Assembly: GCA_001275005.1 (NCBI GenBank)
Contig: JWZX01002124.1
Coordinates: 1 to 32,609, forward strand
Length of the DNA stretch: 32,609 nucleotides
DNA from: Chrysochromulina tobinii
Taxonomy: Eukaryota
Direction: 5' to 3'
The notes beneath the pieces are model-generated. The model made no database searches. It had not been told where the DNA came from and saw nothing but the letters and a program-made list of their open reading frames with translations. Within the stretch, counting starts at the first letter, position 1. Each line of letters opens with the position of its first letter. A program made the translations under genes and the position numbers. Positions 5,732-30,000 of this stretch are shown here, piece after piece.

Positions 5732-6856
5732 CTACATCCTGATCCTCGGCGTGTCCACGCGAGACTCGGTCGCCCCGGGCGTCGACATAGGCGTCCACGG
5801 CGTGCCGACCCTGATCGTCACGCCGCCCTCCACGATCGGTGTGGAAGGCGTGCCGAGCAGACTCTGTGCTTCGGCCGCGGTGCTGGGTGTGCCCGACTTT
5901 TGGGCGAGGCGTGCTTCGATGAGCGCACGCGCGCGCTCGCGCCGCCGCTCAGCGACCTCCGGGTCGCTCGTGGTCACCGAAGCTGGGGCTGGCATGGAGG
6001 GCTGGCGCAGTAGATCGGGCAGCGATGGCGGCGGTAGCACGGGCTGTTGGGGAGCGCCGGCGGCGAGGGCGGCCCAGCCTTGGGGCGGGAAGCAGCCGCA
6101 CATGCTGACCAGCACAAAACTCGCCTCACCCACCGCCCGTAGCGGCGGCTCCAGCGGGGGCGGGAAGAGGCTGGCGAAGGCGAACTCGCTCGAGGGATCT
6201 CCGGCCATGCCAGCCGCGCGCGGTTGGTAGTAGCGCAGGTAGACCCAGGCGGCGAGGATGCCATTCCACGCAAAGAGCAGCTCGTCGGGCGGGCCCGAGT
6301 GCGTGCCCAGGAGTAGCACGGCCGACCACACGAGTACGAGGCTCGGCGCGTGGCGCATGGCGTGCACTGCGAGCTGGCCGGCGGCAGGACCATTGCCGCC
6401 CATCACCACTGGCAGCGCGAAGGCGGCATCCACGTGCACGTGCTGCTTGAGCGCCACAGCCAGGCCGCCCATCACGCCCGTCAGCCCACCGAGGCGCGAA
6501 AAGAGAAAGTGCTCCTCACGAAAGAGGATGTACATCAAGATCATGCCCGCCCACGTGAGGCACCCCTGCACCCCGTTGGTTAGGACGACAAAGCGCAGCA
6601 GCTCACGCCCGCCCCAGGTTGGCCGTAGGAGCACTCCGCACGCGAGCAGCGCCGCTGAGCCTAGCAGCAGGTTGAGGAACGAGTCCTCAAAGTAGCCGGC
6701 GGTGATCACCTGCCACGGGCGCGTGGTCGTATGGCCGGGCACGAGGAAAACGACGGTCTGCAGATCGGGCGCGAGACGAAGCAGAAGCGCCGCCACGACC
6801 ACGCCGCCGACCAGGCCGAGCGCCTCTGGCGGCGCATGGAAGTCCTTCCCTTCCAT
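5732..6856 (-). CDS. TMEM115: TMEM115 / DUF1751 rhomboid-like Golgi membrane protein
   Basis: Several hydrophobic helices plus PWQVITAGYFE, WGGRELLRF, WVYLRYYQ, GDPSSEFAFASLFP and the C-terminal ERRRERARALIEARL, typical of TMEM115. Confidence 0.85.
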   Translation of the reverse strand: MEGKDFHAPPEALGLVGGVVVAALLLRLAPDLQTVVFLVPGHTTTRPWQVITAGYFEDSFLNLLLGSAALLACGVLLRPTWGGRELLRFVVLTNGVQGCLTWAGMILMYILFREEHFLFSRLGGLTGVMGGLAVALKQHVHVDAAFALPVVMGGNGPAAGQLAVHAMRHAPSLVLVWSAVLLLGTHSGPPDELLFAWNGILAAWVYLRYYQPRAAGMAGDPSSEFAFASLFPPPLEPPLRAVGEASFVLVSMCGCFPPQGWAALAAGAPQQPVLPPPSLPDLLRQPSMPAPASVTTSDPEVAERRRERARALIEARLAQKSGTPSTAAEAQSLLGTPSTPIVEGGVTIRVGTPWTPMSTPGATESRVDTPRIRM

Positions 6857-7044: not shown

Positions 7045-8652
7045 ATGCAGATGCAAGTGACTGTCCCCCCTGGCGCAACAGCAGGGCAGCAGGTTCAGGT
7101 TCAAACACCCTCAGGCCCGATGCTCGTGCAAGTGCCTCCTGGCGCGATGCCGGGAACCTTGTTCACGGTCACGATCCCGCAGCAGCAGCAGCAGCCCGTG
7201 ATGGCGCAGCCCATGATGCAGGCCCCACAGCCACAGTACGGGATGCCGCCCCAGCAGCAACAAGCCGTTGGCTACATGCCGCAGCCCGTGATGGCGCAGC
7301 CCGTGATGGCGCAGCCCATCACCCCCGCCCCACCGCAACCACCCCAGTATGGGAGCCCCGCCCCACAGCAACAAGCACAGTATGGGGCGATGCCTCCGCT
7401 GAAGCAGCCCTCCGGCATGGCGGCGCCGTTGCTCGCTCCCGTTCCGATGGGGATGAACGAGCCTCTCCATGTGCCGATGGGACGGCCGGTCTCTGAGCTG
7501 ATGCCGCAGGTGGCCCCGGTCTCCTCGCTCACCGACAGCTACTCGAACTTCCAGTACACGGCCGAAAGCTCGAGCGAGGCGGGCAAGACTCACGCAGCGA
7601 CGTGGGACGCCAAGAGCGGCATCACAGATGCGGCGAGCTTCTCAGCGCCTGTGCCGATGGGTCAGCCTGTCTTCTACTCGGACGAGCAGATGGCGCTGCT
7701 CAACCAGCAGCCCCCTCCGCCCGAGATCTTTTACTACGGCTTGAAGAGCGGCGTGCGACCCGATGTCGCGCAGCCCCTACCGACGGTGACAGGTGCGGCC
7801 ATCGCGACCGACGCACACGTGGCCATGGCACGCCCGGTCTTGACGACGGCGAGCGGCGTGCCCGTCGTCGTCGCCTCCAGCGCGGGCCTCTCGGGGGCGC
7901 GCACCGCCTTCGATGGCATGCAGGGCATCAAGAGCTGCGACGAGCGCCTCCAGACCTCTGTGGACGAGCTGCTTCTCTTCTTCAACACGCACAACAGCCG
8001 GCCGCTGGTGGGGTGCGCGGTCGAGGGATGGCACCATGAGACGCGCCATAGGCGCGTGCGCGTCGAGGACGGCGACGGCAAGCACCACTACAAGACCGAG
8101 ACGTACGTTGAGAAAGTCACCGACTTTCAGTACAAAATCGACCTGACGTCCTTTGTGTACCCATTCGGTTATATTGTGTCCGTCGATGAGAACAAGCTCT
8201 CCGTGCCGCAGCTCTGCCAAAAGTTCGTGGACGACAAGAACCTGCTCAAGAGCCTCCAGATGAAGAAGGAGGTGCACTTCGACTTCAAGCAGCTGCATGC
8301 GATGGTGTACGGCTACATACGATCGCTCGGGTGGCGGCGAGGGCTCACCGTCTCCTTCCCACAGGCCAACAACTCGGTGCGAGTCTACAATGAGAACATG
8401 CTCTCCGAAATGTGGGAGAACTGCTGCTGCAACTGCCTGATGCACGTGACCATCGTGCCGTGCATCCTCATGCGCCTGTACCGCGGCGACTGCCCGTGCC
8501 AGACGGGCCACGCCGAGAGCGACATCCGCAGCTACTTTCGCATCAACTACGCCCCCATACAGGTCTTCGCAGCGATCCAAAACCAGCTCTGGTGCCCGGG
8601 CTTCTCGGGTATGGCCCTGGCCATGGAGATCTTGCGCAATGTCTTCTGGTGA
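7045..8652 (+). CDS. Hypothetical protein: N-terminal VPPG beta module, Pro/Gln/Met-rich linker, globular C-terminal domain with Cys-rich hydrophobic segment
   Basis: Long ORF with GC-rich third codon positions. N-terminus MQVTVPPGATAGQQVQVQTPSGPMLVQVPPGAMPG, repeated PVMAQ motifs, C-terminal GWHHET...VTDFQYKIDLT...WENCCCNCLM. Alternative ATG at 6997. Confidence 0.75.
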   Translation: MQMQVTVPPGATAGQQVQVQTPSGPMLVQVPPGAMPGTLFTVTIPQQQQQPVMAQPMMQAPQPQYGMPPQQQQAVGYMPQPVMAQPVMAQPITPAPPQPPQYGSPAPQQQAQYGAMPPLKQPSGMAAPLLAPVPMGMNEPLHVPMGRPVSELMPQVAPVSSLTDSYSNFQYTAESSSEAGKTHAATWDAKSGITDAASFSAPVPMGQPVFYSDEQMALLNQQPPPPEIFYYGLKSGVRPDVAQPLPTVTGAAIATDAHVAMARPVLTTASGVPVVVASSAGLSGARTAFDGMQGIKSCDERLQTSVDELLLFFNTHNSRPLVGCAVEGWHHETRHRRVRVEDGDGKHHYKTETYVEKVTDFQYKIDLTSFVYPFGYIVSVDENKLSVPQLCQKFVDDKNLLKSLQMKKEVHFDFKQLHAMVYGYIRSLGWRRGLTVSFPQANNSVRVYNENMLSEMWENCCCNCLMHVTIVPCILMRLYRGDCPCQTGHAESDIRSYFRINYAPIQVFAAIQNQLWCPGFSGMALAMEILRNVFW

Positions 8653-9583: not shown

Positions 9584-10773
9584 TCAGTAGTAGTCCTCAT
9601 CGCTGTCCTCGGCCTGCACGGGCAGGTGCGGGGTGACGGCGGCGTTGACCTGGTCAAGCAGCTCGAGCAGTTGGTCCAGCAGCTCCCCGAGTTGGGTGCG
9701 AGCCTGCACGAAGACTTTGCGCATCGGTGTGACCGTGGTGCGCACCTTCTCGATCGACTGCACGGCCTTCTGTGCCGCGACGGAGCGCACGGCTTTCATG
9801 CGCTGCTCGATGCAGCCAGAGGACATTCCCCGGAGCAGCGCCATCCCGAGCACGAGGAGCTCGGCCACGTTATCGAGGAGCTGCGCGTCGAGGGCATGGA
9901 GCGAGTGCGGCAGCCCCATCTCGTTGATCCGAGACATGATCAGTCGCGAGGTCGGCTCGTCGAAGAGTTCCGAATGGTAGCGCATGTCCTCATCCAGTCG
10001 CTTGAGCACGCGCGTCAGCACGTCCTCGCGAGTGCCCTCGATGCCGCTCGTGAGCAATAGCTGGCCGGAGCTCACACGCACCACGAGCTGCGTCGACCAC
10101 GCGTCGACGTTGTACATGAGCTCCATGCGTTTCTGGGCTGCCTCGGCTATGTCGAGCTCCTCGTCGGAAAAGAGAAGCGTGCTCTCGGCGCCCTTCTTCT
10201 TCTCCTCAATGTACAGCCGGTCGGCCCAGTCCTCGGAGCCGCCGAGGGAGAGGCCCACCTGATGAGGGAGGCAATCATCATGCACTCAGCGGAGAGGCAA
10301 TCCGCATGCAATCATAGGCATTCCTCGGAGCCGCCGAGGGAGAGGGCCCCCTGATGAGGGAGGCAATCATCATGCACTCGGGCGATTTGTATGCAACCAC
10401 CTGCGACAGGTACTCGGACACTTCGGTGAAGAGGCGCCGCAGGGCCCCTTCGTCCTCCAACGGCTCGAACGCAACGCGCCGCAGCGCCGCGACTACCTCG
10501 TCGCGTCGCTCCTTGAGAGCGAGGTTCTGGCGCTTGCGAAAGGCGGCCTCGAGCCCCTTTTGCACCTGTTTGGGGTGGCGGTTTCGGTCAGGTTTGGGGT
10601 GGCAGTTTGGGAAAGGTTTGGGTCAGGTTCGGGGTGGCGTGTGACCTGTTTGGGGTGGCGCGTCTTCTTGACCACCTCAGGCCGGTAGCCTTGTACGTAC
10701 AGCGGGCCACCACCACTGCCACCTCTCTTCTCCTTTGGCACCGTCGGCGGCTCCTCGGCCGCTGCTGCCGCGC

Positions 10774-16531: not shown

Positions 16532-17132
16532 GCGCGTTCCTTCTTTTCACAGCCCGTGTTTTTTACTGAACACCCAAAACACCGGACCGGCGTACATACG
16601 TGTGCAGTTACAACTAGCTTACACGGGCGTCGCATTTACTTTACCTTTTCAAAACATGGTAGACGTCTACAATCCAGCTTTCGGTCAAGGATATCTTGAC
16701 TTCAGGCTCAAGCTCGTTATGGATCCCGGCCATGCAGTCGAGAGAGCGGGCGGATAAGTGAGCTAGACAGTTGCTTTTGTCATTTGTGACTAGTGTGTCA
16801 TCGTAGTAGTCGGTACATACATGTACATGTACTCATGTAGTCATGTACGTTGCGTCGCAGTCAATAGTGTGTGAGTGGCATCAATTTCAGGGCCTAAATG
16901 TAGTGATTTACAGTCAATATCGCCAAAATTTTCGCGCCTGCGGCGGGCAGAACTCCCGCGCGCATTGCGCGCGGGGCAACTTGATTACCACCCCTCTATA
17001 GAGCTCCCCTGTCACCTCCCAAGAGGCCGTCGACTACCCGGGTGCAGTCGTCGGAGATGGTGAGACACAAGTACATGTACGGAAGCCGGGAAGGAGCACG
17101 AACGGGAAGGAGACCAGGAGGAGACACGCCTG

Positions 17133-17204: not shown

Positions 17205-19061
17205 ATGTCAGACGCGACGTCCCTTCCTCCGCTGCCGCTGGCGCCTGCGGATCCTGACAGCGTCAAGGAGGCCACTGTGTCCTCGGCCACCGCCCAAGCG
17301 CAGGCTCAGCGCCCATCGGCGGTCGAACAGGCATACCGCAACACGATCGCGCCTCCGGGACGAACACGCACAGTTGCGAGGCCGAGCAAGCAGGGCGGCA
17401 GCGCGGCGGTGGGGACGGCAGAGCCCAGCGCGAGCGCTATCGCAGCATCCAAAGCTACCGATGGTATGTTAGCGGCATCCAAAGCTACCGATGGTATGTG
17501 CGACCCAGCGGTGGCGACGGCGACCGCGACGCGGCATCGACAGCCTTCCGCCTCGCCGTCTGCGTCCGCCCTCAGCAGCGCTGGCGATGTATCGTCCGCC
17601 CTGAAGGCGGCCGTCATGGTCGAGGCGGATGCGCGCGAGCACCTGCGCAAGATGCGCGCAAAGGTGCAGCGCGAGCTTGCGCGTGCCACGTCGATGGCGG
17701 CGCTCGAGGATCTGCGCGAGCGCAAGCGGCAGGAGGGGGTGAACACTCGAGCTGATTTCGAACGACAGGTCGGTCGCGACGTGACGCGCAAGATCGCCGA
17801 GGACCTGGCACAGGGCAAGGTGGAGCCTGCGACGGAAGAGGAGTTGCGCCGTCTCTCAGAACAGTTCAACCGGAGGCTGAAGGATCTGTACCCTGACGCC
17901 GAGGTGACGCCCAACTTCTTCACGCTGTTCAAGCACATCGACGTGGATGGCTCGCGCCGCGTCTCGTTTAGAGAGCTGACGATGCTCATCCGGGTCGAGC
18001 TGCGCCTGTCCAAGGTGATTGCCACTGTAGCCACTGATTGCCACTGATTGCGCTCGTCCGAGGCGGCGCTTCCACTCTCGAAGCTGCATGCGCATCTCTG
18101 AGTGCATGCTGATTGCTTCCTTCATCAGGCGACGCTCCCGCTCTCGAAGCTGCACGCACTCTGGGCGAAGCTTGATGAGAACGGGAGTGGGTTCGTGGAC
18201 GCAGGCGAGCTGGGGCGCTTCATGCGGCTAGGGCTGCCCGAGGCGAGCGCCGGCAGCCGCACGCGCACCCTGCTCGAGAAGCGTGCGGGGCGGAAGGCGC
18301 TGCTCGCGGAGCTCGCGGACCGCTCAGGCGAGGCTCTGACCCGCAAACTTCAAAAGGAGCACGTCCCGCCGGCGACCAAAGCCGAGCTCCTCCAGATGTC
18401 AGCGCTCTTCAATGCACAGATGGCGGCGCTTCAAACACGCGATGCGGGCGGGAACAGCTTCTATCGGCTGTTCAAGTACATGGACATGGACGACTCGGGA
18501 CGTGTCTCGTTCAAGGAGTTCAAGTTGATGATCCGCGATGAGCTCGAGGTGAGCTCCGCCGAGCTGCCGCACGTAAAGCTGCTCGGGCTGTGGAGGGCGC
18601 TCGATCACGACGAGAGCGGGTACATCTGTGCAGGCGAGTTCGGCCGCTTCATGAACCTCAAGGGCCGTGCCAGAGCCGAGGCCGCCAGCCCATACGCCAC
18701 CAACAATGCGACGAAGCGAGAGGCGAAGAATAATGAGATCAGGCGATTGGAGAAGGAGTGGCAGCTGCAGGCGGCACGGCGGGCAGAGGCGACTGCCGCG
18801 GCGCTCGCCTCTGAAGCACACCGGCTCGAGAGCGCTCTTTTCGCCGCCGCCGCTGCCAAGACGCCCGCCGTTAAGAGCCGAGGTCCCCACGACGATGCGC
18901 CGCTCACGCTGCCGCAGATCTCGCCCAACGGCTCGCGCACGCAGACGTTCACCAACGGCCTGTCGCCGTCGTCGGCGAGCACGGGTGCGCTCGAGACCAA
19001 TGCCGCGCTCCACAAGCTCGCTCGCTCGACGCTTGCCCACGGCCACGGCCGAGGGCGGTGA
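17205..19061 (+). CDS. EF-hand repeat protein (two modules, each with an EF-hand pair). Exons 17205-18014 and 18129-19061 (about 580 aa)
   Basis: Loops DVDGSRRVSFRE, DENGSGFVDAGE, DMDDSGRVSFKE, DHDESGYICAGE. After splicing (LRLSK|ATLPLSKL), module 1 aligns without a gap to module 2 (ELEVSSAELPHVKLLGLW). Confidence 0.88.
18015..18128 (+). other. Spliceosomal intron (114 nt), repeat-family type, containing a copy of the spliced exon junction
   Basis: aag|GTgattgccactg...ctgagtgcatgctgattgcttccttcatcAG|gcg. Contains an in-frame TGA. Removal gives the correct EF-module spacing. Confidence 0.88.
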
Positions 19062-27093: not shown

Positions 27094-30000
27094 CTACACA
27101 CCGTAGCCATCGTCGTCATCGGCAGCAGCTGCAGCTATTAACGAGCTCGCCGAAGCTTGCGGCGGCGCCGATGTGCGTTTGACAAAGCCCTGAGCCTGCA
27201 ATGCTTCCTTGAACTGGTCGTTATTCATAGCTGCCGGCACTCCAAGCGCACCGCGCAACTTCGCCACCAGCGCGTCCGTCAGCGGGTCGCCCGCAGATAC
27301 TGACACGCCCAACTGCTCGCTCACCTCGGGAGCCGACTCGGCCGTAAACACATAGGAGGCGGGCGCGGATTTCGCGGCGGCGGGTGCGGGTTTTGCGGCG
27401 GGTGCAGGTGCGGGCTTTGGGGCGGGTGCGGGTTTTGCGACGGGTGCGGGTTTTGTGGCCGTAGGTGCCGAAGTGCGTTCGACAAAGCCCTGAGATTGCA
27501 GTGCTTCCTTGAACTGCTCGTCGGCCATCTCGTCCTCCACTCCGAGCGCATCGCGCAAAGCGTCCAGCAGCGCGTCCGTCAGCGGGTCGCCCGCAGATAC
27601 TGACACGCCCAACTGCTCGCTCACCTCGGGAGCCGACTCGGCCGTAAACACATAGGAGGCGGGCGCGGATTTCGCGGCGGCGGGTGCGGGTTTTGCGGCG
27701 GGTGCAGGTGCGGGCTTTGGGGCGGGTGCGGGTTTTACGACGGGTGCGGGTTTTGTGGCCGTAGGTGCCGAAGTGCGTTCGACAAAGCCCTGAGCCTGCA
27801 ATGCTTCCTTGAACTGCTCGTTATTCATAGCTGCCGGCACTCCTAGCGCACCGCGCAACTTCGCCACCAGCGCGTCCGTCAGCGGGTCGCCCGCAGATAC
27901 TGACACGCCCAACTGCTCGCTCACCTCGGGAGCCGACTCGGCGGTGAAGACGTAGGCGACGGTCTCATCCTTGTCGGCGCCGATCATCGCTGCAAGCAGC
28001 GCATCCGGTGAAGCAGGCGGTTGCGGCGGCGCGGCTGCCGCCTTCGCCTTCGCCACCTCCGCCTCCTTTGCCTTCGCGCCGGCTCGAGCGGCAGCAACAC
28101 GTGCGTGCGCAGCCTTAGCCTCGGCCGCCGCCTTTTCCTTAGCCTCGGTCGCCGCCTTCTCCTTGGCCTCGGCCGCCGCCTTCTCCTTAGCCTCTTTCTC
28201 GGTCGCTGCCTTGGCTGCCGCCTGCGCCGCCGCTTCTTTCTCGGCAACCGCCTTCTTGGTCGCTGCCTTGGCTGCCGCCTGCGCCGCCGCTTCTTTCTCG
28301 GCAACCGCCTTCTCGGCCGCCACCCTCTCGGCCGCCGCTTTCTCGGCCGCCGCTTTCTCGGCCGCCGCTTTCTCGGCCGCCGCTTTCTCGGCCGCCACCC
28401 TCTCGGCCGCCGCCTTCTCGGCCGCTGCCTTCACGGCCGCTGCCTTGGCCGCCGCCTCTCGGCCACCGCCTTCTCGGCCGCTACCTTCTCAGCCGCCGCC
28501 TTCTCGGCCGCCGCCTTCTCGGCCGCCGCCTTCTCAGCCTCTGCCTCAGCCGCTGCCCTAGCGGCCGCCGCCTCGGCCATAGCTGCCGCCTTCTCAGCTG
28601 CTGCCGCATCGGCCAACGCCATCTCGACCGCCGCCTTCTCGACCGCTACCTTCTCGGCCGCCGCCTTCTCGGCCGCCGCCTTCTCGGCCGCCGCCTTCTC
28701 AGCCTCTGCCTCAGCCGCTGCCCTAGCGGCCGCCGCCACGGCCATAGCTGCCGCCTTCTCAGCTGCTGCCGCATCAGCCAACGCCTCCTCGACCGTCGCC
28801 TTCTCGGCCGCTACCTTCTCAGCCGCCGCCTTTTCGGCCGCAGCCTTCTCGGCCGCAGCCTTCTCGGCCGCCGCAGCCTCAGCCGCCGCTGTCTCGGCCG
28901 CCGCCATGTCGGCCGCCGCTACCGCCACTTCGGCCGCCGCCTTCCCAGCCTTGGCATTCTCTGCCCTGGCATACTCGGTGCCCGCCTCTTTCTCGGCTTT
29001 CCCCTTCTTCTCCTCCTGGCCCTTCTCGTCGGTATTTGCCTTCTCTTTCCCCTTCTCGTCGGCCTTGGCCGAGTCGCCTCGTGCAGTCGTCGCGTTCGCC
29101 TTACCCTTGTCATCCCCCTCCACCTTCGTCTCCGCATTCGCCTCCACCGCCGCCCCAGCCTCCACCTTCGGCTTGGCCTCGCGCGCCGCCGCTGCCTCCG
29201 CCTCCGCGGCTGCGCTTGCCTCCGCAGCTTCTGCTGCAGCTCGCGCCTCCGCTGCCGCCGCCTCCACTGTCGCCGCCTCTATTGCTGCCGCCTCAGCTGG
29301 CGTTGCCTCAGCTGCAACACGCGCTTCCTCGGCGCGCGAGTCGACCTCCTTCGAGACCTTCTTCGAAACCTCCTTGAGGCGGATGTGCTCTGCCTCCGCA
29401 GCCTTCGATGCCTCCGCAGCCTTCGCAACCACCGCTTTCGCATGCGCCGCCGCCGCAGCCGCCTCTGCTGCCGCCGCCTCTGCTGCCGCAGCCTCTGCTG
29501 CCGCCGCCTCTGCTGCCGGGGTTTCTGCCTCCTGCTTCGTCTTTTGATCTTCCAGCGCTTTCGTCGTTTCCGGCCTTGCAAATTCTGTACGTGCCTGTGC
29601 GCCCGTGTCCTGTTCAAGTTGTGCTGTCATCTTCTGCTTGAAGGCGAGGACGGCAGCCGTAGTTGCGACGCTAAGCGACAGCTTACCACCGTTCCCGAAG
29701 AGACTGCTAGCACCGGGTTCGCCATCTGGCTCCGTTGTTCCTGCGAGTTCCGGAAACACGTTCATCAAATTGGCCAGTGCTGCTTTAGCGTAATGCACCA
29801 CAAGGTTTTCCTCGTGCGCAACGAGTTGCTCCAGATGTGGCAGGCCACCTGACTGAACCAGAACTTGGCCCCAACTAGGTTCCTTTGAGAGATTGAGGCA
29901 GAGGCCAGCAGCGTATGTAACCACCATAGTATCTGCTGCAGTTAGGCACTGCACGATCTCCTCGCCTACATCGCACGTCAACAGCTGCTGCTTGGTCGCT

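Follow-up and report, generated by a model that had tools for sequence, protein, structure and literature searches.

We find that the 114-nt intron at positions 18015-18128 of the window (the whole 32,609-nt Chrysochromulina tobinii contig analysed here) contains a diverged copy of its own exon-exon junction, and we consider it probable, at roughly two chances in three, that this copy is the by-product of two successive duplicate-and-insert events, of the kind that we infer to have created most introns of the two families described below. The junction copy taken alone would then be a side effect, and less surprising than the original prediction held.

The host gene encodes an EF-hand repeat protein of about 580 aa on the plus strand. 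The coding part of its first exon (17205-18014, with an inferred start codon) is supported by the open frame, by Pfam EF-hand matches and by conspecific fragments, and that of its second exon (18129-19061, 310 aa with EF-hand pairs) by Pfam, by an RNA contig and by homologue alignment. This RNA contig, from run X13, covers 18128-18985 of exon 2 and departs from the window at 18985 with 95 unrelated letters, so that either the contig is chimeric or the strain is arranged differently 3′ of this point. At 17266-17272 of exon 1 the window allele is devoid of about 11 codons that other strains carry; they are found in the X14 contig and in the proteins P0002-P0009 and P0012. The intron is in phase 0, with GT-AG ends and two in-frame stops, and the two exons abut without a gap in the alignment to seven of seven homologues; the full protein thus requires that the intron be spliced, and the homologues would place the splice exactly at 18014/18129. 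The RNA confirmation proposed in the original prediction yielded no such joint in the contigs of the four runs X13, X14, X15 and X17, where exon 1 is so thinly covered that the missing joint weighs neither way; the splice position is taken from the homologues. Every conspecific exon-1 fragment retrieved ends inside the intron, P0001-P0009 stopping at its stop codon.

The intron can be read as a succession of four blocks. The first, 18015-18048, carries the outer GT donor and a 10-nt tandem repeat of the TGATTGCCAC type, of which two alleles exist among strains; it is likely the cassette of a second event, without an acceptor. The second, 18049-18062, copies the end of the upstream exon (18001-18014) with 11 of 14 positions identical. 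The third, 18063-18092, copies the start of the downstream exon (25/30 identical) and is likely the target duplication of a first event, its GC start being then the first donor; a GC-AG intron of this same build is bridged by an RNA contig at locus L075. The last block, 18093-18128, is a family cassette made of branch-point-like CTGAT repeats and a fixed acceptor end, and it is common to hundreds of introns. The repeat block at the 5′ side and the family-conserved 3′ end had both been described beforehand, and so had the junction copy itself, which withstands the controls: 18051-18092 aligns without gaps to the last 12 nt of exon 1 followed by the first 30 nt of exon 2, with 34 of 42 positions identical, whereas the same junction 42-mer reaches at best 25/42 (mean 19.8) in the 250 nt that precede 232 other family acceptors.

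On recheck we obtained the same counts of seven differing codons, four of them synonymous. The argument drawn from the synonymous codons carries no weight, since four third-position differences in eight are the usual share (about 45% of mismatches fall at third positions in ordinary downstream copies). All eight differences between copy and exon are transitions, compared with 46 of 90 in other copies (p about 0.005, post hoc); methylation-linked decay would be a guess at the cause. An origin of the copy in the second EF-hand repeat of the protein was rejected, as this repeat is 72% alike over 90 nt and its peptide differs there.

We surveyed the family in metagenome contigs scanned for its 3′ motif, which gave 128 loci and 830 kb, with long flanks for the first 80 stretches only. 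Choosing loci by this motif biases the type of cassette but not the exon copies; the motif was not found in viral contigs. A weight matrix recognised 579 acceptors, and none in reversed sequence, from which 234 non-redundant terminal ones were retained. The start of the intron's own downstream exon is copied in 142 of these 234 introns, against 9 of 699 after permutation, and the excess of self-copies anticipated for the family is therefore real. An earlier, stricter set gave own copies in 117 of 192 introns, while exon sequence from further downstream was copied in 3.4% of 409; a repeat-like hexamer in exon 2 had excluded the 18015-18128 intron from this set, and the filter was relaxed to reach 234. 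GT begins 171 of the 234 exons that follow family introns (background 4.4%).

In the commonest build, the upstream exon is followed by a copy of the next exon start, by a cassette of 10-11-nt CTGAT repeats with the fixed acceptor, and by the next exon. The 66 simple cases have duplications of 10-63 nt (median 25; exon copies shorter than 10 nt are below the detection threshold), a median cassette of 54.5 nt and a median intron of 81 nt, the lengths of duplication and cassette being inversely related (rho -0.53). The copy begins with GT or GC in 53 of the 66, and the donor is preceded by G in 49 and by AG in only 25 (background 30% and 8%). Microhomology at the join between copy and cassette, measurable in 38 of the 66, averages 3.5 nt instead of 1.7 (p=5e-6). 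The likeness between introns is confined to their 3′ part, the 5′ ends being site-specific exon copies. A second cassette family, with an unrelated 3′ end, behaves similarly: its own downstream copy is present in 60 of 80 introns (5/399 in the control), with duplications of 10-50 nt. We found it through a family-free geometry scan, which was swamped by coding repeats (172-316 hits in the controls). Together, the 234 and 80 acceptors of these two families in 830 kb amount to many introns that are alike at non-homologous positions.

Several known signatures can be set against this build. The duplications do not have the fixed short length of TIR or MITE-type elements, and no terminal inverted repeats were evident on reading the family introns, in which the 5′ join varies between copies. 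The original prediction reasoned that a short target duplication cannot produce a junction copy, which is true, but the duplications here are long. A tandem genomic duplication of the AGGT type does not fit either, as the acceptor lies in an imported cassette and AG precedes the donor in only 25 of the 66 simple cases. On the other hand, a direct repeat of adjacent exon flanks the insert above background, as in Daphnia, and the combination of a fixed 3′ end, a variable 5′ start with microhomology and a variable duplication is SINE-like. RNA contigs bridge three simple introns, two of them at L075 (X16) and the other in a relative of greater divergence (X18), although in such contigs spliced RNA and an intron-less allele look the same; one of the bridged L075 introns has a GC donor and a duplication of 58 nt. 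For the junction-copy introns, no bridging RNA contig was found.

Some introns depart from the simple form. Stacked acceptor arrays occur in 30 of the 234 family introns, with a number of units that varies between strains (L038 versus L109). L002 (10025-10289) and L028 (10025-10421) hold arrays of seven acceptor-plus-exon-start units. L043 has, on its minus strand (acceptor at 5990 when read as the reverse complement), a tandem of one family-1 and one family-2 cassette at a single site, with the same exon start after each of them. At 7046-7132 (+) of L075, a cassette, with its duplication of 24 nt, runs antisense to the last part of the neighbouring minus-strand frame, introduces a stop two codons in, and may sit in the 3′ UTR of the plus-strand gene. 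At about 7640-7770 (+) of L055, telomere-like repeats adjoin the upstream exon copy of a family intron, a hint of break repair.

The junction-copy anatomy is not restricted to the present locus. It is found in at least 15 of the 234 family-1 introns, or about 24 when gapped and short cases are counted. These classes were curated by eye from 27 automatic calls, of which 11 were rejected and one weak case was omitted (null rate 7.8%); an automatic count of 93 upstream copies double-counts neighbours and was not used. Two successive insertions give the same anatomy as the single event of the original prediction, in which the junction, or its mRNA, was copied while both ends were added. The first event would have separated the two exons by a 66-nt intron, made of 30 nt copied from the start of exon 2, with a GC donor, and of the 36-nt cassette. 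In the second, the 14 nt at the end of exon 1 would have been duplicated across this donor, with the repeat block between the two copies; the intron would thereby have acquired a GT donor and a length of 114 nt, with the old junction buried inside. This second duplication would be harmless, because it is spliced out.

The alternative, a single event with two template switches in which break repair copied the junction without its intron (the template being an mRNA, spliced cDNA or an allele lacking the intron) either into an existing intron or during the creation of the intron, produces the observed order in one step, but we hold it to be unlikely. It does not predict hybrids, and we found seven introns (taken from 12 candidates, the other five being of different builds or false) where family-1 repeats precede the junction copy and a family-2 cassette follows it. 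Nor does it predict that the upstream half should be the younger one, as it is over 22 junction introns, with mismatches at 27 of 492 positions (5.5%) compared with 52 of 554 (9.4%) in the downstream half (p=0.019). The corresponding sign test is weak (15/22, p=0.067), the downstream half being less diverged in the seven remaining introns, which one event accommodates. In several junction introns, furthermore, the intron start repeats the inner copy for 9-36 nt, an outcome expected from a duplication across the donor and not from one event. Donor-straddling duplications also occur on introns without an own-exon copy; judged by eye, they extend into such a copy in 24 clear cases out of 42, with six more ambiguous, for a base rate of 61%. 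Junction copies are thus no commoner than two independent events would make them, and no special process is needed. Finally, a diverged coding allele used as template should leave a strong third-position excess; the observed one is slight (6.2% versus 3.6% and 4.0%, p=0.14, 36 introns).

At the present locus itself, the upstream copy differs at 3 of 14 positions and the downstream copy at 4 of 29, so that the upstream one is not younger, and about equal divergence is what a single event would leave. The intron start and the inner copy share 1 nt only. The order of the two events thus rests here on the pattern of the family. A spliced-mRNA template is not needed to account for the junction copy.

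Where do the cassettes come from? Cassette similarity is higher between same-strand neighbours less than 1.5 kb apart (0.070, 172 pairs) than between loci (0.033, permutation p=0.0005), a comparison made after the removal of pattern-matching introns. This excess declines with distance, fading by 4 kb; opposite-strand neighbours, with no more than 10 and 19 pairs to compare, showed none. In L009 (acceptors 7454 and 10322) and in L021 (acceptors 3863 and 4319), a same-strand intron recurs 2.9 kb and 0.46 kb away, respectively, together with the exon copy of the other site, and is joined via a few shared bases. The exon copy carried along gives the direction of copying. As the longest shared tails are local and have the neighbour's exon copy aboard, introns, and not a master element, appear to be the templates.

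The mechanism that we prefer is a microhomology-mediated template switch from a break to the 3′ end of an intron already present. The strand synthesised at the break would leave the target and, through a microhomology of 2-6 nt, pair with the 3′ part of such an intron, often nearby and on the same strand, which would be copied through to its acceptor. Synthesis would then rejoin the target 10-63 nt upstream of the point of departure, creating the duplication that supplies the donor. Selection would keep those events in which the duplicate starts at a usable donor and the resulting length is compatible with splicing. The anatomy, its frequency, the microhomology, the local similarity and the hybrids are observed; the event order at this locus, gain over loss and break repair are our interpretation. 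An RNA template, either an excised intron or a pre-mRNA, would suit the fixed 3′ end and the locality on the same strand; DNA would also do as template, because G|GT is present in both source and target where synthesis rejoins. In its most general form the proposal would be that ordinary spliceosomal introns multiply with no help from a transposon: synthesis at a break in the intron's own gene would be templated by the free 3′ end of the excised intron (or by the pre-mRNA), and an overshoot of 10-60 nt of exon would become the new donor; we advance this only tentatively and regard it as possible but doubtful. If it were true, any intron 3′ end would be a possible source, the birthplace of each intron would be recorded, and passenger sequences would show the direction of copying.

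Target-primed reverse transcription is known to give a fixed 3′ end, 5′ truncation with microhomology and a variable duplication, and all of these are observed here. The unit could then be a retroelement that is not autonomous and depends on a LINE- or Penelope-type enzyme for its movement, with junction copies still resulting from two hits. Many cassettes are indeed alike over 40-50 nt at unrelated loci. However, the behaviour is common to two unrelated cassette families and to nine or more repeat units, the tails shared over the greatest length are found between neighbours and bring the neighbour's exon copy with them, and the cassettes have no poly(A) tail, so that we consider this explanation rather improbable. 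No reverse transcriptase was found in a crude, weak screen of the long frames of the 830 kb for YADD-type motifs, and no long master element is shared among 27,261 cassette pairs.

Our reading of template switching onto existing introns supposes that introns are gained. The gene at L075 has 12 introns of the duplication-plus-cassette build, and its 13 exons tile, in order, the 623-aa single frame of P0074, the last ten with 73-98% identity. The P0074 cluster includes the Chrysochromulina tobinii protein KOO23524.1, and a member of the same length, called as one frame on contigs of up to 38.9 kb, may be read as an intron-less genomic orthologue of the L075 gene. Proteins of C. tobinii and C. 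parva also cluster with the orthologue of a gene of the organism other than the EF-hand one, which marks it as a freshwater haptophyte near Chrysochromulina. At the 18014/18129 site, the homologues P0013 and P0017 are unbroken, yet they read through introns elsewhere. The single-frame orthologue and these unbroken homologues make gain likely, and loss in the relatives correspondingly less so, judging from sequence comparison; they agree with the original prediction that the copy stems from an intron-less locus, the 18015-18128 intron looking like a lineage-specific gain. The comparison of presence and absence among relatives, also suggested there, gave these unbroken homologues but no polymorphism among the 30 introns seen in a second, non-identical context, and since all the exon-1 fragments end in the intron as well, no event has been caught fresh.

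Conversely, old introns could have been remodelled in place with no gain at all, through a tandem duplication of acceptor plus exon start followed by precise loss of the first intron, or through an aborted cDNA-mediated intron loss in which exon sequence replaces the 5′ part. The strain-variable tandem acceptor arrays would be expected under this explanation, and the enriched G|GT context, G or AG before the donor, fits old intron positions too. The more distant paralogue L063/L069 shares two intron positions with L075. At these positions the exon start is far more alike than the rest, and so, at one of them, is the cassette (by eye), as may be seen after transfer between paralogues. The paralogue is devoid of most L075 positions, the close orthologue has one open frame over all 12 of them, and no G precedes the donor in 17 of the 66 simple cases; we find remodelling very unlikely.

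An assembly artefact or chance similarity, to be considered in a repetitive region known only from short-read contigs, can be dismissed as having next to no probability, as one 151-nt contig of RNA run X14 spans 17976-18126 unspliced (one difference) and so covers the exon end plus the copy, the two differ at eight sites, L101 from a different assembly is 100% identical over 625 nt, and the match far exceeds the controls; all sampled words of the region are also present in 12 DNA runs, which may be the assembly's own source.

Elsewhere in the window, a second family intron of 142 nt lies on the minus strand (10259-10400); it has two acceptor cassettes with a copy of about 31 nt of the downstream exon start between them, and an allele or an intron of the same build occurs in L056. 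At about 10566-10675 (-), a repeat-built stretch with a C-rich AAACAG tail occurring twice, and a start loosely like the next exon, is a probable intron of a third type. The upstream intergenic region 16667-17042 is 88% identical to L015 248-596 and is probably a dispersed repeat. Further on, 27167-27956 holds 2.6 copies of a 300-nt tandem repeat, and the minus strand of 28100-29520 a long 15-nt coding repeat of the alanine/glutamate/lysine type.

The origin of new spliceosomal introns is a problem of long standing, and no source is visible for most of the young ones. In the present case, each intron retains a datable copy of its insertion site, and some retain a copy of the source site; source, direction, order and relative age are thus legible in a single genome. 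For gene callers and read mappers, exon copies inside introns and stacked acceptors will also be misleading in these algae.

The closest counterparts are the introners of Symbiodinium and Polarella glacialis (classes 4/5 and 6/8/10), described as carrying the acceptor and taking their donor from a target duplication of 4 or 8 nt (bioRxiv 10.1101/2020.10.14.339549, PMC9860276, PMC11282704), the Symbiodinium elements being marked by inverted repeats (bioRxiv 10.1101/2020.10.14.339549, PMC9860276). They resemble the present introns in being repeated at new positions, with an imported acceptor, a target-derived donor and tolerance of GC donors. Unlike in these descriptions, the duplication here is variable (10-63 nt), microhomology marks the 5′ join, the 5′ end of the cassette is not fixed and the template is often a neighbouring intron. 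An introner described from a marine Chrysochromulina MAG has a 4-bp duplication, carries its 5′ site and co-opts the 3′ one (PMC9860276); it is a haptophyte precedent for repeated introns, but with splice-site roles reversed.

The neointrons of Daphnia pulex are attributed to the repair of staggered double-strand breaks, with exon-shared repeats of 4-12 bp, inserts that are AT-rich and mostly of unknown source, and later breaks that add secondary, also side-by-side insertions (PMC4202315). The repeat of adjacent exon flanking the insert is common to both systems, and their secondary insertions follow our two-step logic; here, however, the inserts can be recognised as 3′ ends of introns and the donor comes from the duplication. 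Tandem duplication, at the genomic level, of an AGGT-bearing exon segment, described along with intron transfer between paralogues (PMC3443670), also leaves copies of flanking exon in the intron and a donor derived from exon sequence. As reported there, plain AGGT duplication gives a downstream then an upstream copy with no foreign cassette, whereas here the upstream copy comes first and the acceptor is imported; the paralogue transfer of the same report could account for the two intron positions that L075 and L063 have in common.

In the R-loop reverse-splicing model for the introner elements of Micromonas, the whole intron is inserted cleanly, without duplication (PMC4540971). It shares with the RNA-template form of our proposal a route favouring nearby sense-strand insertion, but such seamless insertion models, as presented in PMC4540971 and PMC8469720, differ from the present introns by the lack of a duplication. 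Replitron-1 of Chlamydomonas likewise has target duplications of variable length and takes along passenger sequence of the parent copy; this 3.6-kb/910-bp element has terminal direct repeats together with a HUH transposase, and it is not described there as intron-forming (PMC10288648).

Introner screens that ask for similarity reaching both intron ends (PMC12130899) would not retain the present introns, with their site-specific 5′ ends, so that the route may be undercounted. We found no description of such introns in the accessible literature, subscription papers aside, and the supplementary introner lists of PMC9860276 and PMC12130899 may include similar haptophyte families; the route of intron gain is unusual and probably still undescribed. 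To the known systems our analysis adds a probable two-step origin of junction copies, a second cassette family and local copying.
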